A DNA stretch of 64,000 nt from Bacteroidota bacterium (GTDB lineage Bacteria; Bacteroidota; Bacteroidia; Chitinophagales; CAMDFR01), in NCBI GenBank assembly GCA_037130135.1, contig JBAXTO010000003.1, forward strand, positions 36,090-100,089. Reading direction: 5' to 3'. The translations under genes and the position numbers were made by a program. Positions 36,668 to 52,342 of the stretch are shown here, in pieces. The notes below the pieces were generated by a model. The model had not been told where the DNA came from. It saw only the letters and a list, made by a program, of their open reading frames with translations, and ran no database searches. Positions within the stretch are counted from its first letter, which is position 1; every line of letters begins with the position of its first letter.

Positions 36668-36756
36668 AAGTTTAAAGCTCTAAGTTTTAAGATTTAAGTT
36701 TAATGAATTCGTAATTCTTAATTCGTAATTCGTAATTGTTAATTCGTAATTAATTC
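36668..36756. repeat. Mosaic intergenic repeat: AAGTTTA-type units followed by an AATTCGT/AATTCTT 7-nt-period array
   Basis: AAGTTTAAAGCTCTAAGTTTTAAGATTTAAGTTTAATG, then GAATTCGTAATTCTTAATTCGTAATTCGTAATTGTTAATTCGTAATTAATTC. Confidence 0.85.
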
Positions 36757-36760
36757 TTCT

Positions 36761-36768
36761 TACCTTTG
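36761..36768 (+). promoter_or_regulatory. -7 promoter box (TACCTTTG) for the CCA-adding enzyme gene
   Basis: Matches TAnnTTTG, 16 nt upstream of the TTG start at 36785. Confidence 0.5.
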
Positions 36769-36784
36769 TAAAAAATAGCATTCA

Positions 36785-38212
36785 TTGTCAAATACGATAC
36801 CATTAGACCATCCCATATTTCCTTATATCACACAAGCAGCAAGTGAGCTGGGTGTTGATACTTACGTAGTGGGTGGCTATGTGCGCGACTTATTAATGCA
36901 TGGTCCAACTAAGAAAGATATTGATTTTGTTTGTATAGGAAGTGGTATTGAATTGGCTGAAAAAACCGCTGCGTTAATTGATCCCAAACTTAAAGTACAT
37001 ACCTTTAAAAATTATGGTACTGCAATGTTTCATGTGTTCGATACTGATATCGAATTTGTAGGTGCTCGCAAAGAATCCTATCAACGTGAATCGCGAAATC
37101 CTATCGTAGAAAATGGTACTTTAGAAGATGATCAAAACAGAAGAGATTTTACTATAAATGCACTGGCAATCTCTGTAAACAAAGATAATTTTGGTACTTT
37201 AATAGATCCATTTGATGGTATTGCCGATATTGAAAAAGGAATCATACGAACTCCTCAAGACGCTACTATTACTTTTAGTGATGATCCATTGCGTATGTTG
37301 CGTGCCATTCGTTTTGCAACGGTATTACAATTTAGCATTGAACAAAAAACACTAGAAGCGATACATACAAATAAAGAACGAATTAAAATTATTTCGCAAG
37401 AACGAATCACAGAAGAATTAAATAAAATTATCTTATCTAAAAATCCATCGATCGGTTTTAATTTACTTTTTGATACTGGATTATTAGCGATTATATTCCC
37501 TGAAATGCAGGCATTACATGGCACCGAAACAATTAATGAGTTATCTCATAAAGATAATTTTTATCATACCTTGAAAGTACTAGACAATGTATGTGAGATG
37601 AGTGATAATTTATGGTTACGTTGGAGTGCTATTTTACATGATATTGCAAAACCTCCAACAAAGCGATTTGATCCTCGACATGGTTGGACATTTCACGGAC
37701 ATGAATTTTTAGGTTCGAAGTGGGTACCGGGTATTTTCAAACGAATGAAATTGCCTTTAGATGCGCCAATGCGTTATGTTCAAAAACTAGTTTTATTACA
37801 TCTACGTCCTATATCATTGACGAAAGAAAATATTACTGATGCGGCAATACGTCGCTTATTATTTGAAGCAGCCGATGATATAGATGATTTAATGATTTTA
37901 TGTAGAGCAGATATCACTTCTAAAAACAAAATGAAAGTGAAACGATATTTAGAAAATTTTGATATCGTTGAAAAGAAAATTGTAGAAATAGAAGCGAAAG
38001 ATCATATTCGAAATTTTCAACCCCCTATCAGTGGTGAGCTCATCATGGAAACCTTTGGAATCAAGCCATCTAAACCAATTGGTGAAATCAAAAATTACAT
38101 TAAAGATGCCATTTTAGATGGTATTATTAATAATGATTTTGAGCAAGCGTATCAATTAATGTTAGAAAAAGGGGAAAGTTTAGGATTAATACAAGTGCAT
38201 GGAAACAGCTAA
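36785..38212 (+). CDS. cca: tRNA nucleotidyltransferase (CCA-adding enzyme / poly(A) polymerase family) with an HD domain
   Basis: GGYVRDLLM...KDIDF nucleotidyltransferase head, RRDFTINA, and an HD motif (ILHDIAKP). It apparently uses a TTG start. Confidence 0.75.
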   Translation: MSNTIPLDHPIFPYITQAASELGVDTYVVGGYVRDLLMHGPTKKDIDFVCIGSGIELAEKTAALIDPKLKVHTFKNYGTAMFHVFDTDIEFVGARKESYQRESRNPIVENGTLEDDQNRRDFTINALAISVNKDNFGTLIDPFDGIADIEKGIIRTPQDATITFSDDPLRMLRAIRFATVLQFSIEQKTLEAIHTNKERIKIISQERITEELNKIILSKNPSIGFNLLFDTGLLAIIFPEMQALHGTETINELSHKDNFYHTLKVLDNVCEMSDNLWLRWSAILHDIAKPPTKRFDPRHGWTFHGHEFLGSKWVPGIFKRMKLPLDAPMRYVQKLVLLHLRPISLTKENITDAAIRRLLFEAADDIDDLMILCRADITSKNKMKVKRYLENFDIVEKKIVEIEAKDHIRNFQPPISGELIMETFGIKPSKPIGEIKNYIKDAILDGIINNDFEQAYQLMLEKGESLGLIQVHGNS

Positions 38213-39083
38213 ACTTATAGTAATAGCAGGTGCTACAGCCAGTGGCAAAACATCTCTTGCGATTGCATTAGCACAACATTTACAAACTGAAATTATTAGT
38301 TGTGATGCACGACAATTTTACAAAGAATTAGAAATTGGAGTAGCTAAACCTAGTGCAGCACAACTTGCTATGGTACCGCATCATTTCATCGGACATAAAT
38401 CAATTCAAGAAAATTATAGTATTGCTGATTTTGAAAAAGAAGCTTTAGCGTTAAGTGCATCATTATTTAAAAAACATCAAACGATCATCCTTTGTGGAGG
38501 CAGTGGTTTATATATAGATGCCTTATGCAATGGGATAGATGAAATGCCTGCTATTAGCGAAGAGATTAAGCAGCAAGTAGCAATATTAAATCAAAGTGAA
38601 CGAATATCTATTATCCAAGACAAAGACCCTGAATATTATGCTGAATTAGATATTCAAAACATACGTAGGGTTCAACGTGCCTGTGAAGTCATTCTGCAAA
38701 GTGGTGAAAGTTTTTCTTCTTTTAGAACAGGACATAAAAAAAATCGTCCTTTTACGATTTATAAATTTGCGATAGATATTGAACGCGAGGCATTATATCA
38801 ACAGATTAATCATCGAGTGGATGCCATGATTGAAGCAGGATTAGAAGCAGAAGCGAAAACATTATTTCCCTTATTGCCTAATAAAAACCTTGACACCATA
38901 GGTTATAGAGAGTTTTTCGATTCTTTTAATGGATTGCAAAGCAGAGAACAAGCCATCGATAAAATAAAGCAGCATACTCGTAATTATGCTAAACGACAAA
39001 TGACCTGGTTTAGAAAAGATAAAAGCATTCAATGGGTTAAGTCTGAAAATATTGAAGTAATTTTGCAGGCTATTCAAAATTAG
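38199..39083 (+). CDS. miaA: tRNA dimethylallyltransferase MiaA
   Basis: P-loop GATASGKTSLA, SCDARQFYKELEIG, GGSGLY, YAKRQMTWFR. Confidence 0.9.
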   Translation: METAKLIVIAGATASGKTSLAIALAQHLQTEIISCDARQFYKELEIGVAKPSAAQLAMVPHHFIGHKSIQENYSIADFEKEALALSASLFKKHQTIILCGGSGLYIDALCNGIDEMPAISEEIKQQVAILNQSERISIIQDKDPEYYAELDIQNIRRVQRACEVILQSGESFSSFRTGHKKNRPFTIYKFAIDIEREALYQQINHRVDAMIEAGLEAEAKTLFPLLPNKNLDTIGYREFFDSFNGLQSREQAIDKIKQHTRNYAKRQMTWFRKDKSIQWVKSENIEVILQAIQN

Positions 39084-40321
39084 TGAAAGAGATAATTCAA
39101 GCATATAAACGTGTAGATAGTAATATTTACAAAATCATTTGGGCACAGTTTTTCTTCCAATTGATGAATGCATCCTTTAGTTTATTGCGCAATTATTTTA
39201 TGCTTTCTAAAGGCTATAAAGATTTTGAAATTGCCAATTTTACGTCCTATAATTATATTGCTATTACACTGATTGCATTCCCCTTAGGCTTATATATCAA
39301 AGGAAAAAAATTACGAAGTTGGTTTATTACAGCCATGTGTTTTTTACCTGTAATAGCATTTTTAGAAATCTATTCTATCGATCATCGACTTAATGGACTT
39401 ATCACTTTATCCATGTTTTGTTGGGGTATAGCCTTTGCTTGTTTATCTGCTACCGTTACTCCCTACTTATTATTAAATAGTAAAACAGAAACTCATACAG
39501 AAGTGATGGCACTTACTTTTCAAACCTTTACTTTCTCTATGATTATTGTAGGCATCACGCATTATTTAATTAAGTTTATGGTACCTGTTTTCGCTGTAGA
39601 TAGAAATTTTTTATATGCGGTATCTTTTATTTCTGCATTTGGATTAATTTTTTTATTTAGAATTAATAATAAAGAAATCACCTCCGAACGAGTACCTCTT
39701 AGTAAAGCCTATAAGACTTATGATTGGCAGCGAATATTTGCAACTCTTATACCTACTACTATCATTGCTATTGGAGCTGGGTTAACGATTCAATTCATCA
39801 ATTTATTTTTTGAAAATGTGCATGGAGTGCAATCGAGCACCTTTGCAGTGATGGGTGCCAGCACTTATATTTTAGTTGCATTAGGTACGTTTATTATTCC
39901 AACTGTAAAAAGAAATTTCGGCTATAAAGTAGCGATTACTTGGGTGCAAGTGGCTGCTATAATAATACTGGCTGGATTAGCCACAACCGAGTGGTATAAA
40001 GAACATTGGTATGCTGTTTACATCGCTATCTTCCTATTCATCATTCGTCAACCGCTTATGAATGTAGCTGCACCAATGACATCTGAATTGACGATGAATT
40101 ATGTAGGAGAAAAAAATCGCGAATTAGTAAGTTCCTTAACAGCTTCTATCTGGAGTGGCTCTTGGTTTTTCTCGGCTAAAATATTTGAATTATTAAGAAG
40201 CTTAGATATTGGCTATAGTTATATTCTTTTGATAACTGCTTTCATGTATAGCATTGGCGTTTATGGGTATAATGTTTTGATAAAAAAATATTATGCGCAA
40301 ATGAATAAATTAGCAGATTAG
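39083..40321 (+). CDS. MFS-type transporter
   Basis: 412 aa with about 12 TM helices. GTG start overlaps the miaA stop. No specific substrate motif. Confidence 0.55.
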   Translation: MKEIIQAYKRVDSNIYKIIWAQFFFQLMNASFSLLRNYFMLSKGYKDFEIANFTSYNYIAITLIAFPLGLYIKGKKLRSWFITAMCFLPVIAFLEIYSIDHRLNGLITLSMFCWGIAFACLSATVTPYLLLNSKTETHTEVMALTFQTFTFSMIIVGITHYLIKFMVPVFAVDRNFLYAVSFISAFGLIFLFRINNKEITSERVPLSKAYKTYDWQRIFATLIPTTIIAIGAGLTIQFINLFFENVHGVQSSTFAVMGASTYILVALGTFIIPTVKRNFGYKVAITWVQVAAIIILAGLATTEWYKEHWYAVYIAIFLFIIRQPLMNVAAPMTSELTMNYVGEKNRELVSSLTASIWSGSWFFSAKIFELLRSLDIGYSYILLITAFMYSIGVYGYNVLIKKYYAQMNKLAD

Positions 40322-40403
40322 CAAATTTGTTAATTAGCCGATTTGTTGATTAACAATTCAAAAGCTCTTGTTAGATCAAATAATTGTTATCGACTCAGTA
40401 ATT

Positions 40404-40425
40404 ATCTGCCGACAGGTTTTAAACC
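40404..40425. repeat. Degenerate reverse-orientation copy of the CCTGTCGGCAGA hairpin module
   Basis: ATCTGCCGACAGGTTTTAAACC is the reverse complement of GGTTTAAAACCTGTCGGCAGAT. It shares CCTGTCGGCAGAT with the module near 52205. Confidence 0.5.
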
Positions 40426-40522
40426 TTATATGTTAAAAGAATTGCTTCTAATTCACTTAGTATAATGGCTGTTGCTCCCCATACAATTCGATCTTCTAAA
40501 GCATAAGCAGGTACATCCTTGA

Positions 40523-41170
40523 TCAATCCTTTTGAGGAACTAATATCTGTGATAATTTTTTTTCTGTTTGTAAAATATGATGTAATGGAACTTCTAATAC
40601 TTCCTTTACTTCATATGGATCGGGTTGAAATGCAGAAATAGAAGGCACATAAAAAACATAAGGAGAGACTAAAAAATGACTAGGTGGAATATAAATTGGG
40701 GTAAGTGCTAAACATACATTTGAAGAATCTAATCCAATTCCGACTTCTTCATATGTTTCGCGAATAGCCGTTTCTAAAATAGATTCGGAGGTTTCTTGTT
40801 TCCCTCCTGGGAAACTCACTTGTCCACTATGAGTCCCTTCATATTCATGTCGTTGAGTGAGTATAAAATGTAAATTTTCCTCTTTTTCATACAATACAAT
40901 GGCCACCGCTCCTCGTTTAGGATTCAGTTCTAGTATCTTTTCGAGTTGTAATTCGCCTCGATAGCTAGGTGACATTTTCTTCTGTGCCTCCCATCCTGGA
41001 AGGGAAACCGCAGATTCCTGTCTCAACTTTTCTATAATATTATTCCCTATCAACCTGTATAAATATTGTACGAAATTATAAATAACATTAGTTTTGCACT
41101 CTATTTTTTTAAAAAAAGAGTAGGAATGATGATTAATAAGTAGTTTCACTAAATAAAAGTGAACCCACAT
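40523..41170 (-). CDS. NUDIX hydrolase (CoA pyrophosphatase NudL-like)
   Basis: Nudix box GGKQETSESILETAIRETYEEVGI. The track start at 41170 overlaps the divergent gene. A more likely start is the TTG at 41053 (LIGNNIIEKLRQ...) or the ATG at 40975. Confidence 0.75.
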   Translation of the reverse strand: MWVHFYLVKLLINHHSYSFFKKIECKTNVIYNFVQYLYRLIGNNIIEKLRQESAVSLPGWEAQKKMSPSYRGELQLEKILELNPKRGAVAIVLYEKEENLHFILTQRHEYEGTHSGQVSFPGGKQETSESILETAIRETYEEVGIGLDSSNVCLALTPIYIPPSHFLVSPYVFYVPSISAFQPDPYEVKEVLEVPLHHILQTEKKLSQILVPQKD

Positions 41171-42202
41171 AGCGAAGAAAATAAAAATATAATGATGAAA
41201 GATAGGTTTGTAACTTGGAGTAGTAGTAAAGAAAAAAAGAGAAAATTATTAGCATTACAGTTAGATAAGTCGGCTTTTAAAGTAGATATTTATGTATTTG
41301 AAGAAGCTGATATCGATAAAGAATTTGCAGAGAAACTGGAAAAAGAATGGGCCAAAGGGAAAGATTTAGCATTTCCTGAAACACACACTAAAATTGTACG
41401 TCCTTTAAGTGAGGATTCATTATTACCAGATGATATCAAAGTGGATGAAACTGGCAAGATTAGAAATCTTCAAAATGAATGGGCTTACTTATTATTGACA
41501 GAAAAATTAGTAGAATCGATAGTAGATGAATTATCCGATATTAAAGAAAAGGTAAATACATTTACTGCCTATAGCAAAGACGCTTTTGAACAAACTAAAT
41601 CGTTATGGGAAAGAATTTTAGAGCATAGAAGAGAAAAAAATATTGGTCAAGATAAAGTAGATGAACTAAAAGAAGAAGTAAATAGCGTTTTTGAAAAATT
41701 AAAAAGTTTACGTGCCGAAGAAAATAAAAAATTTGGTGAACAAGCGGAAACGATCTATACAGAGCTTAAATCAAACATTGAACAAACTATTCAATCGATA
41801 CAAAATAATGGCTCAGCAAAAGAGTTGTTTGAAAAATTAAAAGAACACCGTAATAATGTAATCAAACTTACTTTACGTAAACCTAGTAGAGAAGAATTAC
41901 ATAAATATTTAGATGAGGCATTTGATTTATTAAAAAACAGAAGATCCGACCGTGAAAATAAACATAATGAAAAACGAATTTATGATTTAACAGAAATCAT
42001 TCAAAAGCTAGAGAAATCACAAGACTATGATAAGAAAGATTTAGATTATCAAATCAAAAAAAGAAATGATAAAAATGTAAATCAATTAGAATCGAAACTT
42101 CGTGAAGCAAAAATCACTATGCTTGAAGAAAAAATTGCTAGCAAAGAAGAAAAATTAGCTGATGTGCGAAACACCTTAGCTAGCTTACAAGGAACTAAAT
42201 AA
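41159..42202 (+). CDS. Hypothetical Lys/Glu-rich coiled-coil protein
   Basis: Highly charged heptad-like sequence throughout. The likely true start is the ATG at 41192 (MMKDRFVTWSS...). Confidence 0.45.
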   Translation: MNPHSEENKNIMMKDRFVTWSSSKEKKRKLLALQLDKSAFKVDIYVFEEADIDKEFAEKLEKEWAKGKDLAFPETHTKIVRPLSEDSLLPDDIKVDETGKIRNLQNEWAYLLLTEKLVESIVDELSDIKEKVNTFTAYSKDAFEQTKSLWERILEHRREKNIGQDKVDELKEEVNSVFEKLKSLRAEENKKFGEQAETIYTELKSNIEQTIQSIQNNGSAKELFEKLKEHRNNVIKLTLRKPSREELHKYLDEAFDLLKNRRSDRENKHNEKRIYDLTEIIQKLEKSQDYDKKDLDYQIKKRNDKNVNQLESKLREAKITMLEEKIASKEEKLADVRNTLASLQGTK

Positions 42203-42211
42203 AAATCTCCC

Positions 42212-42568
42212 TTATTTATTTGCATCGGCCTGCATCTGGCTGAGCTTATCGATCACTTCTAAATATACTAAATCCATATCTTCTGGGTTTTGCATATAAA
42301 AATTATAGGTTTTCATAAACACTTCTTGATTTACTTTATGCGCCTGTAAAACCGTTTTAAAATTCATTTGATTGGTCATCACTAATGTATCTGCTTGATA
42401 GCCTTTATACTCGGTATAGGCATCTGAAATATGAATATCGCAGAGTACATCTATAAATTCTTGTTTGCTTAAAATATCTTTGGGACGAACTTTTTTATCC
42501 TTACAAGCTGTAAAGAAAATAGTAGTTACAAGAAGTACCAAAGCCATATAGTAGAATAGCGATTTCAC
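42212..42568 (-). CDS. Small lipoprotein, DUF4296-like
   Basis: Lipobox FFTAC. FIDVLCDIHISDAYTEY resembles the conserved DUF4296 helix, recalled from memory and not searched. Confidence 0.45.
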   Translation of the reverse strand: MKSLFYYMALVLLVTTIFFTACKDKKVRPKDILSKQEFIDVLCDIHISDAYTEYKGYQADTLVMTNQMNFKTVLQAHKVNQEVFMKTYNFYMQNPEDMDLVYLEVIDKLSQMQADANK

Positions 42569-42644
42569 CTAACAAAGGTAGTATGAAAATACCGCATGTG
42601 GTATAGGATGTATTATAAAATATTTATAACTTCGTAGAATCAAC

Positions 42645-42652
42645 TACATTTG
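42645..42652 (+). promoter_or_regulatory. -7 promoter box (TACATTTG) only 4 nt upstream of the yggS ATG
   Basis: Matches TAnnTTTG. The spacing predicts a transcription start at or next to the ATG at 42657, i.e. a candidate leaderless mRNA. Confidence 0.4.
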
Positions 42653-42656
42653 ATTT

Positions 42657-43316
42657 ATGAATATTGCTTTTTATAATGAATTAGCCCCTCAACTAAATAC
42701 CTATCATGCAACGCTAATTGCTGTTACTAAAAATCAACCCTTACCGGCTTTACAAGAATTATATGATTTTGGCTTACGTCGATTTGGAGAAAATAGAGTT
42801 CAAGAACTTTGTGAAAAGCAACAACAACTACCTGCTGATATTGAGTGGCATTTAATTGGGCATTTACAAAGCAATAAAGTGAAATACATTGCTCCTTTTA
42901 TTTCGTATATTCATAGTGTAGATAGTTTAAAATTACTCGAAGAAATAAACAAACACGCTGCTTCCAATCAACGAATTATTAAATGTATGTTACAGTGTTA
43001 TATCGCGAGTGAAGAAACAAAATATGGTTTAGATGAAGCAGAATTAATGGATCTTTTGAATGCCCCTAATTTAAAAACGTTTCAACATATTGAAATTGTG
43101 GGATTGATGGGAATGGCTACAAACACTAAAAATACAGCGCTAATTGCAAAGGAATTTAAACACTTAAAAAATATATTTGATCGTGTACAAAGTCAATTTT
43201 TTAATACTCAAAATTCATTTAAAGAAATATCAATGGGTATGAGTAGTGATTATGAGATAGCATTAGAATGTGGTAGCACCATGTTACGAATAGGCTCCAT
43301 GCTATTTACTCAGTAA
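42657..43316 (+). CDS. yggS: YggS family pyridoxal-phosphate homeostasis protein
   Basis: LIAVTKNQP (PLP lysine), FGENRVQE, HLIGHLQSNK, GMSSDYEIALECGSTMLRIGS. Confidence 0.88.
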   Translation: MNIAFYNELAPQLNTYHATLIAVTKNQPLPALQELYDFGLRRFGENRVQELCEKQQQLPADIEWHLIGHLQSNKVKYIAPFISYIHSVDSLKLLEEINKHAASNQRIIKCMLQCYIASEETKYGLDEAELMDLLNAPNLKTFQHIEIVGLMGMATNTKNTALIAKEFKHLKNIFDRVQSQFFNTQNSFKEISMGMSSDYEIALECGSTMLRIGSMLFTQ

Positions 43317-43323
43317 TATTTAT

Positions 43324-43331
43324 TATATTTG
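43324..43331 (+). promoter_or_regulatory. -7 promoter box (TATATTTG) for the 43351 gene
   Basis: Matches TAnnTTTG, 19 nt upstream of the ATG. Confidence 0.5.
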
Positions 43332-43350
43332 AAATCAAACCAATTATTAT

Positions 43351-44382
43351 ATGAAAAAACTTTTTACATTATGTAGTCTAATTTTAGGAATTGGACTCAT
43401 TCAAATGAGTTACGGACAATCAGTAAACTTTAAAGTATATGGTGGATATTCTTGGCCTGGTTTCTTCAAAACTAGTGGCATCAAAGGATTTCAACCAGGA
43501 AGTAATCCTGAACCAACTGCTGCAAGTATTGTAGATATGATGAATATTGTAGATACAGGCGTAACGAATAAATCATATCAAGCTATTAGAGGTTCTTATG
43601 GTAAAGGAGGTAATATAGGAATTAGTGTTGGTTATATGTTTAATAAATGGATTGGCGTAGAGATGAATATGGTTTATTTATTTGGTTCTAGCATTCAATC
43701 TACACAAGTATCAAATGCTTCAGCATTATTAGGACCAGGTGCGATTACACGTACCAAAACCAGTGCTAACGGATTAAGTTTATTGCCTGCTATTAATTTA
43801 GTGGCAGCAGTTGACAATTGGAAAGTATTGCCTTATGCACGTTTAGGCATATCTGTTCCGGTATATGGAAGCATTAAACATGTTATCGATATTGAAGCAC
43901 CAAAACCGAATTCAGCATTTTTTGCAACGGCTAAAAGTATTAAATCACATGTAGAAGTTAAAACTGATGCGACTATTTCTTTAGGATTTATTGGCGCTAT
44001 TGGAGCAACCTATCAAGTGCATAAAAACATTCGAATCTTTGCCGAAGTAAATGCACAAGTATTAGATGTGCGAGCTAAAAAAACTACGGTTGTAGCATAT
44101 TCTATCACACAAACAGATGTAAATGGCGTAGAATCTGATTACTTAACCTTAGATAATTTTCCTAATACCTATAGTAGAGAAGTTGTGTTTGTAGATGAGT
44201 TAACCGATAAATCTAATAATGCAAATTATAATACAACTTATAATAGCTCAGGCTACAACTATGATAAAGATAAACCAAAAGATGAGTTAAGACCTACTGC
44301 CCCATTTCATAATGTAGGATTAAGTGTTGGTTTAAACTTTATGATTAGTACAGCTAAAGTATCAAAAATAACAGTAAATTAA
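43351..44382 (+). CDS. Hypothetical secreted protein, probably an outer-membrane beta-barrel
   Basis: Signal peptide ending SYGQ. Alternating Gly/aromatic beta-strand-like segments. No specific motif. Confidence 0.4.
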   Translation: MKKLFTLCSLILGIGLIQMSYGQSVNFKVYGGYSWPGFFKTSGIKGFQPGSNPEPTAASIVDMMNIVDTGVTNKSYQAIRGSYGKGGNIGISVGYMFNKWIGVEMNMVYLFGSSIQSTQVSNASALLGPGAITRTKTSANGLSLLPAINLVAAVDNWKVLPYARLGISVPVYGSIKHVIDIEAPKPNSAFFATAKSIKSHVEVKTDATISLGFIGAIGATYQVHKNIRIFAEVNAQVLDVRAKKTTVVAYSITQTDVNGVESDYLTLDNFPNTYSREVVFVDELTDKSNNANYNTTYNSSGYNYDKDKPKDELRPTAPFHNVGLSVGLNFMISTAKVSKITVN

Positions 44383-44794: not shown

Positions 44795-44826
44795 AAAATA
44801 AAAAAGCCCCAAGTAAACTTGAGGCT
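44795..44826 (-). terminator. Intrinsic terminator after tRNA-Glu
   Basis: Minus-strand stem AGCCUCAAG-UUUA-CUUGGGGCU (one U-G pair) followed by UUUUUAUUUU. Confidence 0.7.
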
Positions 44827-44839
44827 TTTATCGCGTGTG

Positions 44840-44911: not shown

Positions 44912-44929
44912 ATTTCCTAAAAAGGAGTG

Positions 44930-44937
44930 CAAATATA
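44930..44937 (-). promoter_or_regulatory. -7 promoter box (TATATTTG) for tRNA-Glu
   Basis: Matches TAnnTTTG on the minus strand, 18 nt upstream of the tRNA 5' end. Confidence 0.5.
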
Positions 44938-45032
44938 CGTACTTTTTATCATCGATGTCAATAATTTGTTAATTTTTTTTATTAAAATTTAATTTACCCC
45001 TATAAATCATTGTCACAGAGCCTCAGAATACG

Positions 45033-45040
45033 TACCTTTG
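45033..45040 (+). promoter_or_regulatory. -7 promoter box (TACCTTTG) for gap, with a TTG -33 element at 45010-45012
   Basis: Matches TAnnTTTG. The TTG lies 20 nt upstream and the ATG 41 nt downstream. Confidence 0.55.
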
Positions 45041-45048
45041 CACCCTAA

Positions 45049-46086
<1,038 letters not shown>

Positions 46087-46115
46087 TAGTTTTAAATGAA
46101 GAATTTTTAATGATG

Positions 46116-46152
46116 AATGTTGAGTGTAGGATGAATTTCTAAACTCAACATT
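46116..46152 (+). terminator. Hairpin between gap and pgk (weak terminator or attenuator)
   Basis: 10-bp stem AATGTTGAGT / ACTCAACATT with a 17-nt loop and only a weak T-rich tail. Confidence 0.35.
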
Positions 46153-46179
46153 TATCATTTATAATATAAAAAAAGCAAG

Positions 46180-47373
46180 ATGATAAATATAGATAATTAT
46201 AATTTCAAAGGCCAGAAAGCATTGATACGTGTCGATTTCAATGTGCCTATGGATAAAGATTTTAAGGTGACTGATGACAGTCGTATCACGGCTGCCATTC
46301 CGACTATTCAAAAGGTTTTAAATGATGGTGGCGCGGTGATTTTAATGACACATTTTGGTCGACCTAAAAACGGACCAGAAGATAAATATTCAACCAAACA
46401 TTTATTGCCAACGCTAAATAAACTCTTAGGTTTAGAAGTAAAATTTACGCCTAATTGTGTAGAAGCAGAAGCGGTTTTAGCTTGTGGTACGCTTGAAATG
46501 GGACAGGTATTGATGTTGGAAAATACGCGTTTCAATCCGGAAGAAGAAGCAGGTGATAAAGTATTTGCAGAATTATTAGGGGAATTGGGGGATGTATATA
46601 TCAATGATGCATTTGGTACGGCACATAGAGCACATGCCTCAACAGCTATTGTAGCAGATCATTTTGATGAGATGCATAAAATGTTTGGTTATTGTATGCA
46701 AGGCGAAGTGAGTGCAGCAGAAAAAGTAATGAAAGATGCAGAACGACCATTCACCGCTATTTTAGGAGGTGCTAAAGTGTCGGATAAAATTTTAATCATC
46801 GAAAATTTATTGAATGTAGCCAATAATATTATTATTGGTGGTGGTATGGCGTATACCTTCTTTAAAGCCATGGGAGGTAATATTGGAAGCTCTTTATGCG
46901 AAAATGACAAATTAGATTTAGCCAAATCTTTATTGGAAAAAGCAAAAGCAAAAAATGTACAAATCTATTTACCGGTTGATTCTATCGTTGCTGATAAATT
47001 TGATGCGGCAGCCAATACGCAATTAGCTGACAATAAAAGCATCCCTGATGGCTGGATGGGATTAGATATTGGCGAACAAGCCATCGTTGATTTTTGCAAG
47101 GTTATAAGTGAATCGAAGACGATTTTGTGGAATGGCCCAATGGGAGTTTTTGAAATGGATAAGTTTAGTAATGGCACCAAACAAATTGCTTTAGCTATTG
47201 CAGAGGCTACTTCAAAAGGCACATACTCTTTAATTGGCGGTGGCGATAGCGTTGCAGCGATTCATAAATTTAATTTAGCTGATCAGGTAAGTTATGTAAG
47301 TACCGGTGGTGGTGCGATGCTTGAATTTTTTGAAGGCAAAGAATTACCGGGTATTAAAGCGATACGAGGATAA
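46180..47373 (+). CDS. pgk: Phosphoglycerate kinase
   Basis: RVDFNVP, NDAFGTAHRAHAST, STGGGAMLEFFEGKELPG. Confidence 0.95.
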   Translation: MINIDNYNFKGQKALIRVDFNVPMDKDFKVTDDSRITAAIPTIQKVLNDGGAVILMTHFGRPKNGPEDKYSTKHLLPTLNKLLGLEVKFTPNCVEAEAVLACGTLEMGQVLMLENTRFNPEEEAGDKVFAELLGELGDVYINDAFGTAHRAHASTAIVADHFDEMHKMFGYCMQGEVSAAEKVMKDAERPFTAILGGAKVSDKILIIENLLNVANNIIIGGGMAYTFFKAMGGNIGSSLCENDKLDLAKSLLEKAKAKNVQIYLPVDSIVADKFDAAANTQLADNKSIPDGWMGLDIGEQAIVDFCKVISESKTILWNGPMGVFEMDKFSNGTKQIALAIAEATSKGTYSLIGGGDSVAAIHKFNLADQVSYVSTGGGAMLEFFEGKELPGIKAIRG

Positions 47374-47381
47374 TTTTATTC

Positions 47382-47660
47382 AATTACGAATTACAAATTA
47401 CGAATTGTGGATTAAGAATTAATTACGCTAAAGCGTTAATTAATTACGAATTACGAATTACAAATTACGATTTATGGTTAAGTATACCAAGTCGTTAAAC
47501 ATTAAAAATTCGTAATTTGAAATTCGTGATTAATAAAGTCCTTTTAATAGTGTCAAAATTACATACTAACAATACGAAGGAGTATTAGAATTAAAAATTG
47601 ATATCCCAAAGTACCGAACGTTCGGTATGAGACCTCATTCGTAATCTGTAATTCGTAATT
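47382..47660. repeat. Mosaic intergenic repeat cluster: AATTACG/AATTCGT 7-nt arrays in both orientations plus palindrome modules
   Basis: Arrays at 47382-47406 and 47442-47470 (AATTACG orientation) and at 47507-47531 and 47637-47660 (AATTCGT orientation). Imperfect palindrome AATTACGCTAAAGCGTTAATT (47421-41). Perfect 16-nt palindrome TACCGAACGTTCGGTA (47612-27). Confidence 0.9.
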
Positions 47661-47663
47661 TTT

Positions 47664-47897
47664 TTATTGTAACTGTGCTTTCTTCGATTTCTTTTTATGC
47701 CACCACCATATCATACCGACAGTGAACACTAAAAAGTAGGGTGCTACTAATAAATAAATGATGCCTCTGTTGATACTCAATAAATCTTTCGCTCCAGCAT
47801 TGACACTGGTTTCAGCATTGGCTTTACACATCGCACATTGTGCATAGGTCGCTACTTGTATTCCTACTAATACGACTGAAAAAATATACTTTTTCAT
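47664..47897 (-). CDS. Small hypothetical protein: signal peptide, CAMC motif, C-terminal TM helix and a basic tail
   Basis: The preferred start is the ATG at 47897 (MKKYIFSVVLVGIQVATYAQCAMCK...), 19 nt downstream of a TATCTTTG box. The track's longer start at 47942 would run into the repeat region. Confidence 0.45.
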   Translation of the reverse strand: MKKYIFSVVLVGIQVATYAQCAMCKANAETSVNAGAKDLLSINRGIIYLLVAPYFLVFTVGMIWWWHKKKSKKAQLQ

Positions 47898-47916
47898 ATG
47901 CCTGTATTTTATAGTA

Positions 47917-47924
47917 CAAAGATA
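47917..47924 (-). promoter_or_regulatory. -7 promoter box (TATCTTTG) for the small CAMC protein gene
   Basis: Matches TAnnTTTG on the minus strand, 19 nt upstream of the ATG at 47897. Confidence 0.5.
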
Positions 47925-47933
47925 GTACTTATT

Positions 47934-48041
47934 AAAGTTCAAAGTTTAAAGTTTAAAGTTTTGAGCCTGCCTGTCGGCAGACAGGTTTAAAGTACAGAGT
48001 ATTCTTAATTCTTAATTCTTTCACGCCTTGGCGTGACGTAA
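47934..48041. repeat. Mosaic intergenic repeat: AGTTTAA array, TTTTGAG, hairpin CCTGTC-GGCA-GACAGG, ATTCTTA array, hairpin TCACGCC-TT-GGCGTGA
   Basis: AAAGTTCAAAGTTTAAAGTTTAAAGTTTTGAGCCTGCCTGTCGGCAGACAGGTTTAAAGTACAGAGTATTCTTAATTCTTAATTCTTTCACGCCTTGGCGTGACGTAATT. The same modules occur in the same order as the 52165-52342 copy. Confidence 0.9.
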
Positions 48042-49328
48042 TTAATAGTACGCGTGATCACTCTTCGTTTCCGCATACTTTTTCTCTTCCTGCTTTTTCA
48101 CGATGCCTAATAACATCTTTTTAAATCCTGGAACATCCTTCATTTTCGGATTCTCACCATGTTTTTTAAATCGATCGAAGAATCCAATGGTAGCCATTAC
48201 AGCAAATAACGCACAGGTATTATGATCTAACTGTGGACTTAAATTATTCAACTTAATATCTTTCTTTCCATTTTTAGTCATCTCTTCATACACCTTCTCC
48301 GAATTTTTGTATGACACTTCTCTGTCGCCCTGACAATAACACAATTGAACAGGCGCTTTGGGCATCCAGTCATATAAATTATTATCTTGTAATCGTGCTT
48401 TAAATGCAAAGTTTGGATCATTCAAAAACAAATTAATGAATGTATCTCTCACTACATCTTTAGGTACTTTCGGTAAAATATTATTCAAGTCCCATAAACC
48501 ATGTAAACGTTCTCCTTCAAAATAAAATGGCAAAATAGAATCATAAGGTGCTTTAAATATCGAATAAATATTATTTGTATTCACTACGTGATATGCTTCT
48601 TGATACGACACTAATAAATAGGGTAAATAAAATGGTCGTGGATAGACTTGAAACATAAATTTCGCTTGATCTCCATTCATGTCATAGGCACCACTCATAG
48701 GCGAACTAGCCGTTACCTTGAAACGAGGATCATTCAATTGCTCTAAATATTTATGTGCAGCAAATGATGCATGTCCTCCTTGCGAATAGCCCGTCAAAAA
48801 CAATTGACCATTGGTGGTGACACCAATTTTTTTATTCAACTCATCAATCGCATATAACATATAAATTATCGCATTGGCTTCCGATTCGGCATGCTGATAG
48901 ATATGATTCCCATCCCCTGCTCCTATTCCAAAATAATCGGGATATAAGGCATTATAGCCATTCGTTGCCGAACCTAAGGCAATTCCTTGTTGTGCATCTT
49001 TATCAGAAATCTGTCTTCCTTTATGTATTTCAGTCCCATGACAAAAAACTAAATAAGGAGATTTTTCTTTGGTTTTTGGTACATAATAAATCCCGGATGC
49101 TTTTCTCATCGTGCCATCTACAAACTTCCCATAATAAGTGATTTCATATATATCTACATCGTATTTTACAGGCACAATAATACGTGGCAACTTATTGCTT
49201 TTCCATAAAGCTTTCAGTGTTTTCTTAGTATGTGTTTTTACTAAATTGTACGAAATTAGATATTGATCTGCGGCTTGTACATGGCTCATAATTACTACCG
49301 ACATGAGTAGTAGGAGGATTCGTTTCAT
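48042..49328 (-). CDS. Secreted lipase-like alpha/beta hydrolase (paralog of 20596..22044, without a T9SS CTD)
   Basis: Signal peptide. GYSQGGHAS elbow, SSPMSGAYDM, CQGDREV and LDHNTC align with the paralog motifs GYSQGGHAS, SAPMSGAYDM, CTADRQV and LDHQEC. Confidence 0.7.
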   Translation of the reverse strand: MKRILLLLMSVVIMSHVQAADQYLISYNLVKTHTKKTLKALWKSNKLPRIIVPVKYDVDIYEITYYGKFVDGTMRKASGIYYVPKTKEKSPYLVFCHGTEIHKGRQISDKDAQQGIALGSATNGYNALYPDYFGIGAGDGNHIYQHAESEANAIIYMLYAIDELNKKIGVTTNGQLFLTGYSQGGHASFAAHKYLEQLNDPRFKVTASSPMSGAYDMNGDQAKFMFQVYPRPFYLPYLLVSYQEAYHVVNTNNIYSIFKAPYDSILPFYFEGERLHGLWDLNNILPKVPKDVVRDTFINLFLNDPNFAFKARLQDNNLYDWMPKAPVQLCYCQGDREVSYKNSEKVYEEMTKNGKKDIKLNNLSPQLDHNTCALFAVMATIGFFDRFKKHGENPKMKDVPGFKKMLLGIVKKQEEKKYAETKSDHAYY

Positions 49329-49391
49329 TCTATCGTTTTAATAAGTTGAAAAAAAAGGGTTTTCAAATCTACAACAATAGAACGAATTGCG

Positions 49392-50396
49392 TTATAGTTG
49401 CGAAAAATATTTTTTATTCCAAAGAAAATACTGCAGTACAATGCTTTTCGAATAGCTTGAAACTGCTACTTTTCTTATCGCCTTACGTTTCTGTAGTAGA
49501 CTTGGTAGTGCTGCATAAAAATGAAAATGGGCTTTTAGTATCGCTTGTACATCCGCTATATTTCGCTTGATGAATAATGCTTGCACCCCAGCTAAACCAT
49601 CCAATAACATACGAACAAAAATTTTAAATGGCATAACACTCCCTGCTTCGTTTTTAAACATCATAAATAAATTATTACGGAAGTTCAAGTAGGTTTTACG
49701 CGGATTGCCTTGGGGCAAAGTACCACCGCCCACATGATAAACCGTACTAGTGGCTATGCAATATATTTTATACCCCAGCATGCGCACACGCCAACATAAA
49801 TCAATCTCTTCCATATGTGCAAAGAAATCATCATCCAGTTTACCAGCTTGTTCAAAGACTTCTTTACGAATAAACAGACAGGCCCCGCTTGCCCAATGAC
49901 ATTCGATATTAGAGGAGTATTGATTCGTATCTTTTTCAACGGTATCGAATATTCTTCCTCTACAAAAGGGATAGCCTAAATAATCGATAAAGCCTCCTGC
50001 AGCGCCTGCATATTCAAACGATTCAGGCGAATGAAAGGCTTTTATAATCGGTTGAACGGCACCAACCTCCTTATGTGTATCCATATACGAAACCAAAGGT
50101 TCCAGCCAGTTCTCACTTAAAGCTACATCGCTATTAAGTAATACATAATATTGGGCATTAATCTGTGCTAAAGCCTGATTATAACCACCCGCATACCCAT
50201 AATTTTTTGCTAATGCTATCAGTTGGATTGTTGGATATTGTTGTTGCATAAAGTCTCTGGAATCATCCGTAGAAGCATTATCGGCCACAACCACTTCACA
50301 CCAATCAAATGCACAATGCTGCAATACATTGGGTAAAAACTGTTCGAGCCATTTTTTACCATTATAATTGAGAATAACTATAGAAACTTTTTTCAC
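49392..50396 (-). CDS. Family 2 glycosyltransferase
   Basis: VSIVILNYNG start, DNASTDDS, LNSD (DxD-like) and a GGxxxxRKEVF-type segment. GTG start. Confidence 0.8.
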   Translation of the reverse strand: MKKVSIVILNYNGKKWLEQFLPNVLQHCAFDWCEVVVADNASTDDSRDFMQQQYPTIQLIALAKNYGYAGGYNQALAQINAQYYVLLNSDVALSENWLEPLVSYMDTHKEVGAVQPIIKAFHSPESFEYAGAAGGFIDYLGYPFCRGRIFDTVEKDTNQYSSNIECHWASGACLFIRKEVFEQAGKLDDDFFAHMEEIDLCWRVRMLGYKIYCIATSTVYHVGGGTLPQGNPRKTYLNFRNNLFMMFKNEAGSVMPFKIFVRMLLDGLAGVQALFIKRNIADVQAILKAHFHFYAALPSLLQKRKAIRKVAVSSYSKSIVLQYFLWNKKYFSQL

Positions 50397-50400
50397 TCAA

Positions 50401-50408
50401 CAAAGATA
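50401..50408 (-). promoter_or_regulatory. -7 promoter-like box (TATCTTTG) only 4 nt upstream of the GT2 GTG start
   Basis: Matches TAnnTTTG on the minus strand. Same 4-nt spacing as at yggS. Confidence 0.35.
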
Positions 50409-50482
50409 AAAGGAATAAAATGAAAATGAATTGTGGTCTCGATGAAATGAATTATTGCATCTTATCATACAAGCAAGTAAAA

Positions 50483-51541
50483 TTATATGCTATTTACATA
50501 CCATTTCTTCCTAAACCAAAACGCCAATTTCACCAATAAAATCAAAGCGGGTACTTCTACCAAGGGACCGATAACACCTGCGAATGCTTGTCCTGAATTC
50601 ATTCCAAATAAACCTACGGCAACGGCAATAGCCAATTCGAAATTATTGCCTGTAGCGGTAAAAGATATAGCGGTATTGGTAGGATAATCAGCTCCTAATT
50701 TTCGGGCAATTATAAAAGTAACCACAAACATCACGATAAAATATATCACTAAAGGAATGGCTACACGTACTACATCCATTGGTATTTGCACAATCATCTC
50801 GCCTTTCATACTAAACATCAATACAATGGTAAATAATAGTGCGATCAAAGTAATAGGAGAAATGAAAGGAATAAATTTAGTATTAAACCAAGTTTCTCCT
50901 TTCCATTTGATGAGAGCATATCTGCTGATAAAGCCTGCTAGAAAAGGGATGCCTAAATAGATAAAAACGCTTTGTGCAATCTGCCCCATGGTGATAGCTA
51001 CTGATAATGATTTCATTCCTAAAAAAGTTGGAACAATCGTCAAATAAAAATAGGCATAACTCGAATATAATAATACTTGTAAAACACTATTAATACCTAC
51101 TAAACCGGCCAAATACTCTCTATTGCCTTCGGCTAATTCATTCCAAACAATCACCATCGCTATGCAAGGGGCAATTCCTATTAAGATTAATCCAGTGAAA
51201 TAATCGGGATACTCTTTTAAAAATACATAAGCCAATCCAAACATAAATAAGGGTGCTATCACCCAGGTAATAAATAAGGAGAACGCAATCAGTTTTATAT
51301 TTTTAAATAGCGTTGGAATCTTTGCATAATTTACTTTGGCTAAGGGTGGATACATCATTAAAATCAAGCCAATAGCTAAAGGGATATTGGTGGTTCCCTT
51401 GGATAATGAATCGATAGAACTAGTAACTATTGGAAAAAAATATCCGATGGCAACCCCAATAAGCATGGCTGCAAAAATCCATAAGGTTAAATACCTATCT
51501 AAAAAAGTTAATCGTTTGGGTTTGGGTATAGTATGATTCAT
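50483..51541 (-). CDS. acr3: ACR3 family arsenite efflux transporter
   Basis: N-terminus LTFLDRYLTLWIFAAMLIGVAIGYF and 10-TM BART-superfamily architecture. Lies in an ars operon. Confidence 0.85.
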   Translation of the reverse strand: MNHTIPKPKRLTFLDRYLTLWIFAAMLIGVAIGYFFPIVTSSIDSLSKGTTNIPLAIGLILMMYPPLAKVNYAKIPTLFKNIKLIAFSLFITWVIAPLFMFGLAYVFLKEYPDYFTGLILIGIAPCIAMVIVWNELAEGNREYLAGLVGINSVLQVLLYSSYAYFYLTIVPTFLGMKSLSVAITMGQIAQSVFIYLGIPFLAGFISRYALIKWKGETWFNTKFIPFISPITLIALLFTIVLMFSMKGEMIVQIPMDVVRVAIPLVIYFIVMFVVTFIIARKLGADYPTNTAISFTATGNNFELAIAVAVGLFGMNSGQAFAGVIGPLVEVPALILLVKLAFWFRKKWYVNSI

Positions 51542-51542
51542 A

Positions 51543-52160
51543 TTATGATTTGACTAATGAAAATGCGTATAATGTTTCTGTAAGTATTTGTTTAAAGCGA
51601 TCTTGATAGGTTTGTTCTTGTAAGGCCGTGCCATCCGATTTTTTAGGATCTTCATAGGTAGTGCCTATACGTAATGACACCCCGGGTATCAAAGGGCAGT
51701 TTTCATCGGCATCCGAACAAGTCATGATGGCTGCAAAATGTTGTTTCGGATTCACTTCATCCTTATATATTTTCGAAAAACACGTGGTATATAAATCCTC
51801 TCCAAAGGAAACTTTATAAATCGGATTGGCTTGCTCTAATTGGGTTGTACTTATCTCAAAACCTAAAGTGCGTAATGCTTGAATGGCATTGGGATGAAAA
51901 GCAGTGGCTTCTGTCCCACCAGAAAATGTAGATACCTGATTGATATGAAAATAATTCGCCGCCAATGCTCCAGCTATCTGTCCGAAGTGCGAGCGACGAG
52001 AATTATGCGTACAGATATACACTAATTGAATGGGCTCATTCGAGTCTTTTTTCTGTTGAATAAAAGATGCAAGCTCATTCAAAATTTTTTTTCGTTCCAT
52101 ACTGATGGTATCGAATTCTTGAATGAGTGTATCTGCTAATTTCTTTAATCGTATATACAT
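51543..52160 (-). CDS. arsC: Arsenate reductase, LMW-PTPase family (thioredoxin-coupled ArsC type), with an N-terminal extension
   Basis: P-loop CTHNSRRS (CX5R-S), and downstream MTCSDADENCP, which matches the Cys82/Cys89 relay motif of Gram-positive ArsC. Confidence 0.8.
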   Translation of the reverse strand: MYIRLKKLADTLIQEFDTISMERKKILNELASFIQQKKDSNEPIQLVYICTHNSRRSHFGQIAGALAANYFHINQVSTFSGGTEATAFHPNAIQALRTLGFEISTTQLEQANPIYKVSFGEDLYTTCFSKIYKDEVNPKQHFAAIMTCSDADENCPLIPGVSLRIGTTYEDPKKSDGTALQEQTYQDRFKQILTETLYAFSLVKS

Positions 52161-52164
52161 ATAA

Positions 52165-52342
52165 GTTTAAAGTACAAAGTTTAAAGTTTAAAGTTTTGAG
52201 TTTTGAGCCTGCCTGTCGGCAGATATGTTCTTAGTTTAATTCATAATTTTTATCCCGAAGTACCGAACGTTCGGTAAGAGACGTAATTCGTTCACGCCTT
52301 GGCGTGACGTAATTCGTAATTTGTAATTCGTAATTCGTAATT
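52165..52342. repeat. Mosaic repeat cluster inserted inside the ars operon
   Basis: GTTTAAAGT units, TTTTGAG x2, GCCTGCCTGTCGGCAGA, CCCGAAG-TACCGAACGTTCGGTA-AGAGAC, TCACGCCTTGGCGTGA (52292-52307), then the AATTCGT array. It fills the DUF6428-arsC spacer. Confidence 0.9.

Follow-up and report, generated by a model that had tools for sequence, protein, structure and literature searches.

Since 1990 tandem heptamer repeats have been recorded, first in cyanobacteria and afterwards in further phyla; we know of no accepted origin or function for them. The 64-kb window analysed here (the whole stretch of 64,000 nucleotides) contains intergenic mosaics of heptamer arrays and short palindromes, and the question raised by this locus is whether these mosaics are copies of a single mobile element or the product of separate processes acting on the same spacers.

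Modules and sites in the window

A sequence-only reading had described six module types (a-f), shared by at least seven intergenic sites, and every one was found at the coordinates claimed. Types a (AATTCGT/AATTACG, or ATTCTTA), b (AAGTTTA) and c (TTTTGAG) are tandem arrays, and TRF agrees with the claimed period of exactly 7 nt for all four array types. Types d, e and f are palindromes, referred to here as D (CCTGCCTGTCGGCAGACAGG), E (TACCGAACGTTCGGTA) and F (TCACGCCTTGGCGTGA). The sites are as follows:

30574-30657, + strand: 26-nt tandem of 3.2 units, each comprising TTAATTCTT and the F-like palindrome TGACGCCTTGGCATGA, a degenerate copy of F; second copy at 30972-31055
34669-34688, no strand assigned: D-type palindrome CCTGCCTGCCGTCAGGCAGG, related to D, about 30 nt upstream of a small GIY-YIG gene (34434-34634, minus strand)
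36666-36751, + strand: direct composite of an AAGTTTA-type array (b, 36666-36703) followed by an AATTCGT/AATTCTT array (a, 36706-36751), lying between the stop of a DinB-family gene (36660) and a CCA/poly(A)-polymerase-family gene
40307-40416, + strand: 8-nt ATTAGCAR array (40307-40356), directly after an MFS gene stop, and half a D palindrome, CTGCCGACAGG (about 40406-40416)
47382-47660, no strand assigned: gene-less heptamer-armed hairpin in the spacer separating a PGK gene from the small membrane ORF convergent with it; outer arms AATTACG (a, 47382-47421) and AATTCGT (a, 47637-47660), inner arms 47442-47474 (a) and 47507-47530, F-like mini-hairpin TTACGCTAAAGCGTTAA at about 47427-47443, nested E palindrome at 47612-47627
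47932-48036, + strand: direct composite between a small ORF start and a lipase-like gene stop (48042); AAGTTTA array (b, 47932-47961), D (47966-47985), ATTCTTA array (a, 48001-48020), F (48021-48036)
52163-52342, + strand: direct composite within a co-oriented ars-type operon, between a DUF6428 gene stop (52349) and the next gene start (52160); AAGTTTA array (b, 52163-52196), 2.3 copies of TTTTGAG (c, 52192-52207), truncated D (52208-52222), TCCCGAAG with E (52261-52276) and AGAGAC (together 52253-52282), F (52292-52307), AATTCGT array (a, 52308-52342)

Both E palindromes carry the flanks given in the sequence-only reading. The motif AATTCGTAATTCGT, an AATTCGT doublet, has 10 matches in the window at no more than one mismatch, compared with 0.04 expected from shuffles, and 0 of 100 shuffles reached 10 matches. 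The order b-c-d-(e)-f-a is, as proposed, identical at 47.93 and 52.17 kb, and positions 1-30167 are without any module, which agrees with the reported absence of copies from the first 30 kb. The modules were found at all seven sites, but those at 40.40 and 30.58 kb are weaker members of the set: the former has only half a D palindrome beside its 8-nt array, and the latter lies within a separate tandem small-RNA gene array, where it is situated in a 398-nt tandem repeat. The 30.58-kb tandem shows local amplification of a unit made up of a heptamer and a palindrome. The hairpin at 47382-47660 folds with a dG of -76 to -80 kcal/mol (z of -9 to -11) on both strands, and a search by folding for a large hairpin in the composite at 36666-36751 found none (z about +1).

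A dispersed family at the 3' ends of genes

The family had been proposed to be dispersed, a view that depended on further copies; a genome-wide motif scan located these across the 3.09-Mb Chitinophagales genome, at about 71 intergenic sites. The palindromes number 57 (F), 22 (E), 16 (D) and 7 (P), and the arrays 34 (a), 26 (t), 20 (b), 13 (v) and 8 (c). Both CACGCCTTGG and AAGCTTCGGG rank with the most over-represented non-coding 10-mers of the genome. Among intergenic tandem arrays, 117 have a period of 7, compared with 20-35 for each of the periods 6, 8 and 9, and AATTACG is the commonest heptamer unit. Only about 12 of the 137 intergenic arrays of period 7 or 8 are paired as inverted arms.

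The sites are biased towards the 3' ends of genes. Convergent gene pairs hold 27 of 66 sites (41%, against a background of 15%), and the median distance is 30 nt to stop codons and 99 nt to starts, which upholds the earlier description of a BIME-like layout in gene 3' regions and spacers. The orientation of sites showed no bias relative to GC skew, which is itself noisy. At all seven sites with both AAGTTYA and AATTCKT arrays, the former are on the 5' side of the latter and share their strand, a grammar that pure in-situ decay does not predict. The family, which the sequence-only reading did not recognise, is not in Rfam: a search at gathering and E-value thresholds returned only tRNAs and sub-threshold noise. 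An exact search of 185,579 species genomes with the 30-nt junction of F and AATTCGT gave 0 matches.

Sites persist while their contents turn over

Orthologous sites were compared with a congener at 88% identity. Of seven orthologous sites that bear modules, four have them in both genomes, and at all four the content differs, so that sites persist while their contents change rapidly. The idea that the composites behave as single mobile units is not sustained by this comparison, in which the site is kept in the congener and its module set is different in 4/4 cases. The orthologue of 47932-48036 has a different module set in G002 and only degenerate 7-nt periodic sequence in G004; that of 52163-52342 has in G002 only b/t arrays and an F with a flipped centre, and in G004 no modules. 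Inspection of composite boundaries revealed no common termini and nothing resembling terminal inverted repeats or target duplications. A MITE, Correia or BOX-type element was rejected on the grounds that the composites lack defined ends and that the differences between orthologous sites affect single modules rather than entire units. The family has at least two layers, heptamer arrays and palindromes, and is not one transposing element.

Heptamer units recur as arms of PF05635 cassettes

The sequence-only reading saw no candidate mobilising gene in the window; outside it, the genome encodes both RAYT-type Y1 transposases and PF05635 cassettes. All three genes for PF05635 ("23S rRNA intervening-sequence protein", IVP) of this genome are flanked by inverted arrays, with the arms AATTACG/AATTCGT+AATTCTT, AATGTTT/AAGCATT and ATTAGCAR 8-mers; the units paired with the three paralogues are AATTCGT, AATGCTT and ATTAGCAR, respectively. 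The third of these is the 8-mer of the window array at 40307-40356. Congener cassettes have the arms AAGTTCA/AACTTTG and TTTTGAG/CAAAATT; AATTCGT, AATTCTT, AAGTTYA and TTTTGAG each occur as the inverted arm of a PF05635 gene in this genome or a congener.

The association extends beyond this group. Among 80 homologues of IVP, spread over many phyla, 76 have an array of period 5-9 within 150 nt of the gene; 54 of the 80 have arrays on both sides, which are inverted in 52. Cassette arms abut the gene and are near-constant in length, at about 4-4.6 units. The arm unit clusters on the IVP protein tree (52-55 changes, whereas shuffling gives 62-65, and none of 200-300 shuffles reached a value as low as that observed), and the AATTACG unit alone requires 7 changes compared with 14.1. 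At least 120 genomes, from many phyla, contain exact (AATTCGT)3.5 arrays, which are abundant in Nostocales and four of which abut an IVP gene. The unit recurs unchanged in unrelated phyla, in genomes both GC-rich and AT-rich. A literature search found no mention of the link between heptamer arrays and PF05635 cassettes.

One site in three congeners documents both the presence or absence of a cassette and its inversion. In G003 the site is empty, with neither gene nor arrays; G000 has a cassette on the + strand, and G004 a cassette on the - strand whose IVP is 68% identical. The window elements contain no PF05635 ORF, and could therefore only be gene-less derivatives of an IVS-type cassette. 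A tblastn search for PF05635 remnants in gene-less sites found none, so that the case for solo arrays having come from cassettes is an indirect one.

Mini-palindromes form a second layer

F, E and P share a layout of 7 nt + 2 nt + 7 nt, and D comprises 20 nt. These palindromes behave as discrete insertions: D is a 20-nt indel that separates G000 and G002, the loops of the repeat REP2 (see below) are 10 nt or, with F inside, 22 nt, and E is found at the tip of some paralogous hairpins and is absent from others. The [palindrome + array] unit has been duplicated locally. Of 24 F copies within arrays, at least 20 have the same orientation as the array, which suggests that it spreads together with its flanks. 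The 16-20-nt palindromes are restricted to this clade, with F found in G000, G002 and G004 only, and F and E are absent from most PF05635-positive Chitinophagales genomes, indicating that the palindromes need a separate cause. Stem covariation was sought and not detected; paired cells were as frequent as expected from shuffles, and each family had 1-2 compensatory cells. The palindromes were also considered as intrinsic terminators and rejected as such, since no T tracts lie behind them and units of the CGTAATT type follow F, E and P. A terminator scan of the region gave one weak match (52209-52222).

Origin of the mosaic

On balance, the mosaic is probably non-coding, non-autonomous DNA that accumulates after stop codons through two separate processes, one yielding cassette-arm heptamers and the other copied palindromes. 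The heptamer arrays would be arm repeats of IVS-type cassettes, in which a four-helix-bundle PF05635 gene of about 360 nt lies between inverted arrays, each some 28 nt long and made up of about four 7-nt units. Such a cassette would insert directly after a stop codon, could invert, and would leave or spawn gene-less forms, comprising inverted-arm hairpins (for example that at 47.38-47.66 kb) and the solo or direct arrays that would be by far the commoner derivatives in this genome. The gene-less arrays may then change where they lie, through slippage, unequal exchange and unit replacement, while the 16-20-nt palindromes would be copied as discrete, sequence-defined units into array unit boundaries and the loops of other hairpins. 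Solo arrays probably derive from cassettes, although it may be, conversely, that in this genome PF05635 genes entered pre-existing arrays. By analogy with 23S rRNA intervening sequences, read-through transcripts could form arm-arm dsRNA that RNase III would cut. For the most part the elements appear to be selfish or neutral DNA at 3' ends, which would affect 3' RNA structure as a side effect. We tentatively raise the further possibility that PF05635 proteins partner their own arm unit as RAYTs do REPs, making or maintaining the arrays, and that the 7+2+7 palindromes are ultra-small mobile DNA targeting unit boundaries and hairpin loops.

Alternatively, the modules could be selected RNA-level elements, kept as 3'-UTR or intercistronic signals such as terminators, stabilisers against 3' exonucleases or sites bound by single-strand RNA-binding proteins whose footprint is 7 nt. 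The 3'-end and convergent-pair bias, the proximity to stop codons and the persistent occupancy of sites between species at 88% identity are all consistent with such a role, and the heptamers upstream of start codons in Beggiatoaceae have been proposed as regulator binding sites (PMC4679880). The mixed orientation to transcription in tandem gene pairs (6 sense, 11 antisense), however, together with the lack of T tracts, of compensatory variation in stems and of an Rfam match, and the unlike content of every shared orthologous site, makes this explanation doubtful. Plain replication slippage, by which arrays arise wherever a 7-nt doublet appears and PF05635 genes merely prefer inserting or surviving there, would fit the single substitutions that separate neighbouring arrays, the predominance of solo arrays in this genome and, as PMC4679880 summarises Mrazek et al. 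2007, the finding that in many prokaryotes heptanucleotide repeats are commoner than any other class of 5-11 nt. It would not predict an arm unit that tracks PF05635 phylogeny across phyla, abutting arms of near-constant length, a G003 site that lacks arrays as well as gene, or an identical AATTCGT unit in both GC-rich and AT-rich genomes from phyla that are unrelated, and it leaves the constant-sequence palindromes unexplained; we regard it as quite unlikely.

The remaining alternatives concern the palindromes. F, E, D and P could be REPs mobilised in trans by RAYT-type Y1 transposases, the mosaics then being BIME-like clusters. A search for such genes, suggested by the sequence-only reading, did identify two RAYT-like genes, at C29:162600-163022 (94.7 bits on NF047646, above cut-off) and C2:31813-32259 (77 bits on the same model, with HUH and YxxNP motifs); the hairpins are also short and rich in GC, with extragenic positions at 3' ends, and the C2 gene has both an E-type palindrome and a REP2 containing F no more than about 550 nt away. 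Each RAYT gene, however, is flanked by a distinct hairpin of its own that is not F, E or D, namely REP1 (GTTCGACATG-n10-CATGTCGAAC, about 8 copies) and REP2 (GTGGTTGGTG-n10-CACCAACCAC, about 18 sites). F is an insert within REP2 loops rather than a RAYT-flanking repeat, G001 and G003 have RAYT-like genes yet no F and no E, G004 has neither palindrome within 5 kb of a RAYT gene, and the hairpins show no inverted-doublet (REPIN) layout. Mobilisation by RAYTs is thus unlikely. It could also be argued that the small GIY-YIG single-strand nuclease encoded at 34434-34634 has the palindromes as its targets, in the manner of Neisseria NTS/SRM repeats, as a D-type palindrome lies close upstream of the only small GIY-YIG gene and Ssn genes are typically flanked by their own hairpin repeats (PMC11893778). 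The degenerate SRM pattern HGTCWYN(0-2)YYVSBRHN(0-5)WNVSBRGN(0-2)RNCYNB (PMC11893778), however, had 0 genome matches against 2 in a shuffle and overlapped 0 of 102 palindromes; the gene has a single palindrome, on one side only, and other D copies sit in AAGTTYA arrays far from it. This explanation is highly improbable.

Relation to known systems

Small dispersed repeats (SDRs) of 21-27 nt were reportedly described in Nostoc punctiforme by Elhai and colleagues in 2008, and are said to be very small constant-sequence units, occurring as discrete insertions nested in repeats and hairpins, in genomes that are reportedly rich in heptamer arrays. The tiny constant units described here resemble that account in being discrete, nested insertions, and are set apart from it by their length of 16-20 nt, perfect palindromy, 7-nt arms and phylum. 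Heptamer direct repeats such as TAACTGA occur in Beggiatoaceae, cyanobacteria and some Bacteroidetes (PMC4679880). The short tandemly repeated repetitive (STRR) heptamers of heterocystous cyanobacteria and those of Beggiatoaceae are likewise mostly intergenic tandem 7-nt units, with several unit types per genome and a patchy distribution across phyla. In contrast, the arrays described here are interleaved with constant 16-20-nt palindromes, can be tied to PF05635 cassettes, and are located at gene 3' ends instead of just upstream of start codons as in Beggiatoaceae.

ORF-bearing 23S rRNA IVSs (S23p/PF05635) are found in Coxiella burnetii, where the IVS spans 428 nt and its stem 28 bp, and in Leptospira (PMC4990558). 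Three loci of the present genome similarly place a PF05635 ORF between stem-forming inverted repeats of about 28 nt, and both systems have a sporadic distribution that suggests horizontal transfer. Whereas the IVSs sit in rRNA helices, the cassettes follow stop codons of protein genes and their arms are explicit tandem heptamers, with only gene-less forms in the window. The BIMEs and REPs of enterobacteria, and REPINs with their RAYT transposases (PMC3116915), are also mosaics of short palindromes and other motifs in extragenic 3' regions, and this genome likewise has RAYT genes with their own flanking REPs. F, E, D and P differ in being neither RAYT-flanking repeats nor arranged as REPIN doublets, and in being embedded in heptamer arrays, which BIMEs lack.

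Significance

These data link a Bacteroidota repeat family, through common arm units, to the long-unexplained heptamer repeats of cyanobacteria, and place side by side in one genome cassette-arm units, forms that lack the gene and, as a second layer, mini-palindromes. If PF05635 proteins do partner their arms and the palindromes are mobile, this would provide a mechanistic origin for STRR-type heptamers across bacteria. The repeats lie inside operons, as in the ars operon at 52.2 kb, and could be misannotated as terminators or small RNAs. Several contig ends fall within them, indicating that these repeats break assemblies.

Heptamer arrays and palindromes across the genome

The sequence-only reading had described the intergenic repeats of the window as mosaics of palindromic hairpins and arrays with a 7-nt period, with the module order b-c-d-(e)-f-a at 47.93 and 52.17 kb. 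All the listed modules were recovered where that reading had placed them, none lies in the first 30 kb, the order is common to the 47.93 and 52.17 kb copies, and the period is exactly 7 in the AATTCGT/AATTACG, ATTCTTA, AAGTTTA and TTTTGAG arrays (TRF). Where dinucleotide shuffles predict 0.04 AATTCGT doublets with at most one mismatch, the window has 10. The window corresponds to C23:36090-100089 of the source genome (G000; 3.09 Mb, 32% GC, 31 contigs), which by its protein matches belongs with freshwater MAGs of the order Chitinophagales. A scan of this genome for further copies, through a fuzzy-motif inventory that allowed palindromes at most 2-3 mismatches, returned ~71 intergenic sites, showing that the family is real, genome-wide and mosaic. 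The inventory holds 34 arrays of class a (AATTCGT/AATTACG), 26 of t, 20 of b (AAGTTTA type), 13 of v and 8 of c (TTTTGAG), together with four palindrome families.

Palindrome families in G000 (fuzzy-motif inventory)
F palindrome, TCACGCCWWGGCGTGA, 57 copies
E palindrome, TCCCGAANNTTCGGGA, 22 copies
D palindrome, CCTGCCTGnnnnCAGGCAGG, 16 copies
P palindrome, TACCGAACGTTCGGTA, 7 copies

The palindrome cores rank among the most over-represented non-coding 10-mers of the genome. Period 7 accounts for 117 intergenic tandem arrays (3,728 nt), compared with 20, 35 and 20 arrays of periods 6, 8 and 9, respectively, and across the whole genome its commonest unit is AATTACG (23 arrays by TRF). The most fitting reading of the family is a BIME-like mixture in which heptamer arms of IVS cassettes, along with gene-less forms derived from them, make up one layer and clade-specific mini-palindromes, inserted as discrete units, make up the other.

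Convergent gene pairs are over-represented around the sites (27 of 66, versus 15% among intergenic regions overall), and divergent pairs are under-represented (3 of 66, again versus 15%). The median distance of a site is 30 nt to a stop codon and 99 nt to a start, the latter being approximate because genes were called as longest ORFs. Orientation relative to transcription is mixed in co-directional pairs, and no bias was seen relative to GC skew. All seven sites with both types have the AAGTTYA array 5' and the AATTCKT array 3', both on one strand. D always lies within AAGTTYA-type arrays, and F and E lie mostly within AATTCKT-type arrays.

Several contigs of G000 (C13:1, C29:178433, C3:84213, C30:1-200 and C9:26383) terminate in an F palindrome or a heptamer array, as contig C162 of the congener G002 does in an array; thus, the repeats appear to break assembly. 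The longest ORF of a small membrane protein (window 47664-47942) begins at a TTG within an AAGTTTA array. The true start is likely the ATG at 47899, in which case the array there is probably 5'-UTR and not coding.

Heptamer arrays and the arms of PF05635 cassettes

The source genome carries three genes of PF05635 ('23S rRNA intervening-sequence protein'; Pfam 96 bits; closest solved structure 2rld, E 1e-32), and inverted arrays bracket all three.

PF05635 cassettes of G000
C1:182990-183301, arms AATTACG (left) and AATTCGT + AATTCTT (right)
C4:23285-23593, arms AATGTTT and AAGCATT
C13:7655-7960, arms of inverted ATTAGCAR 8-mers

The 8-mer of the C13 cassette recurs at window 40307-40356, and PF05635 genes of the congener G004 have arms of AAGTTCA/AACTTTG and TTTTGAG/CAAAATT. 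Thus, each heptamer type named in the sequence-only reading is a cassette arm somewhere in the genus. At a site 3' of an SDR-family gene the cassette gene lies on the plus strand in G000 and on the minus strand in G004, the two proteins being 68% identical, above any paralogue pair; in a further congener, G003, two convergent genes abut there with no arrays. Recombination between inverted arms would produce such opposite orientations.

The association extends well beyond the genus. Homologues of the C1 protein from many phyla (50-64% identity) were surveyed with 600-nt flanks, and 76 of 80 have a period 5-9 array within 150 nt of the gene; 54 have arrays on both sides, inverted in 52, and in all the closest homologues AATTACG x4 upstream and AATTCGT x4 downstream directly abut the ORF. 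PF05635 proteins with 55-64% identity to the one in G000 are found in Bacteroidota, KSB1, Thiotrichales, Pirellulaceae, SAR202, Paceibacterota, Clostridia and Nostoc, a distribution suggesting that the cassette has spread widely by horizontal transfer. Arm units are clustered on the maximum-likelihood protein tree (52-55 changes versus 62-65 with shuffled labels, none of 200-300 shuffles being as low; 7 versus 14.1 for the AATTACG label), which, given the poor resolution of a tree built on 121 columns, represents clustering and not clean clades. In length the arms (~4-4.6 units, 28-32 nt) agree with the terminal stem (28 bp) of the Coxiella IVS, a 428-nt sequence cut by RNase III (PMC4990558). 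No paper tying PF05635 genes to heptamer repeats was found in the literature searched.

At least 120 genomes, among them Nostocales, Acidobacteriota, Chloroflexota, Ignavibacteria, Planctomycetota and many Bacteroidota, contain exact (AATTCGT)3.5 arrays; among the matches listed, a PF05635 gene lies within ~100 nt of 4 of 120, and F, E and D are almost never alongside. Within G000 inverted pairs account for only ~12 of the 137 period-7/8 arrays between genes, and no PF05635 remnants were detectable at gene-less sites. The sole long heptamer-armed hairpin of the window is at 47374-47665 (dG -76 to -80 kcal/mol, z -9 to -11); the composites at 36.67, 47.93 and 52.17 kb fold into small local hairpins only.

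Palindromes as a separate layer

In F, E and P, two central bases separate a 7-nt arm from its complement; D measures 20 nt, and P is nested in an E-like stem. The palindromes act as discrete units. Inside an array, G000 and G002 differ by a clean 20-nt D indel, and paralogous long hairpins have a plain loop or carry E or F at the tip. F in arrays is co-oriented with the units: at least 20 of 24 copies have a pyrimidine-pyrimidine centre. The [heptamer + F] unit has itself been tandemly amplified at window 30574-30657, and G002 shows a further such amplification over G000 at C30:124128. Among 41 Chitinophagales genomes exact F is confined to G000 (20 copies), G002 (12) and G004 (12), and E occurs in three other families besides; PF05635 is present in 33 of the 41, indicating that the palindromes are a separate, younger layer. 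Compensatory variation in the stems did not exceed that in shuffles, in a test whose power is lowered by the 2-3-mismatch limit of the inventory; the result is consistent with a defined sequence that was copied recently, not with conserved RNA structures.

It could be argued that RAYT genes mobilize the palindromes, and two candidates are present in G000.

RAYT genes of G000
C29, region 162300-163150, RAYT gene, 166 aa, NF047646 94.7 bits
C2:31813-32259, minus strand, RAYT-like gene, 77 bits

Each is flanked by a hairpin repeat of its own: the C29 gene by REP1 (GTTCGACATG-n10-CATGTCGAAC; ~8 copies genome-wide), and the C2 gene on both sides by REP2 (GTGGTTGGTG-n10-CACCAACCAC), with at least eight copies of GTGGTTGGTG-GAAAATACAA-CACCAACCAC-GGGGTAAA around it (C2:31250-32560). 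REP2 loops are either 10 nt (GAAAATACAA) or 22 nt (GAA-F-CAA), and about one-third of REP2 copies genome-wide hold F in the loop. All five congeners have RAYT-like genes, even the two that lack F or E, and a search of the G000 genome with the published Ssn-related motif returned nothing. None of the RAYT or Ssn-type candidates accounts for F, E or D.

Turnover between species

G000 and G002 were compared over 409 kb of alignment (88% identity) with 269 orthologous intergenic regions. Modules are present in seven of these regions, shared by the two genomes in four, limited to G000 in one and limited to G002 in two. None of the four shared sites has the same module content in both genomes. At C26:25306-25430 the two arms changed together, being AATTACG/AATTCGT in G000 and AATTAAG/AATTCTT in G002. 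The window sites at 47.93 and 52.17 kb are occupied by other module sets in G002, and in G004 (72-75% identity) by degenerate 7-nt periodic sequence or nothing. Shared occupancy with differing content thus indicates long-lived repeat nests with fast internal change.

Other observations

A 398-nt tandem repeat (x2.2) at window 30262-31157 contains five copies of a ~75-nt unit with a terminator-like hairpin, and its spacers hold a 26-nt tandem of heptamer plus F-like palindrome. A D-type palindrome adjoins a small GIY-YIG gene (window 34434-34634); nearby, a tRNA gene (window 34247-34326, minus strand) is accompanied by two extra tRNA end fragments (CTACCAGTTCCGCCATCAGGGCA) at ~34690 and ~34770. 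A different dispersed element of ~300-400 nt (~20 copies; conserved core ...cgtcgaagactagaacgaaaataatc...gacggccaccgcaccctaggttg...) has no Rfam match.

Copies of the ~300-400-nt element
C1:428901-429750
C26:24435-24715
C23:297903-298319

Its presence differs between G000 and G002, and one copy sits as an insertion within a heptamer array, accompanied by a direct duplication of ~19 nt.
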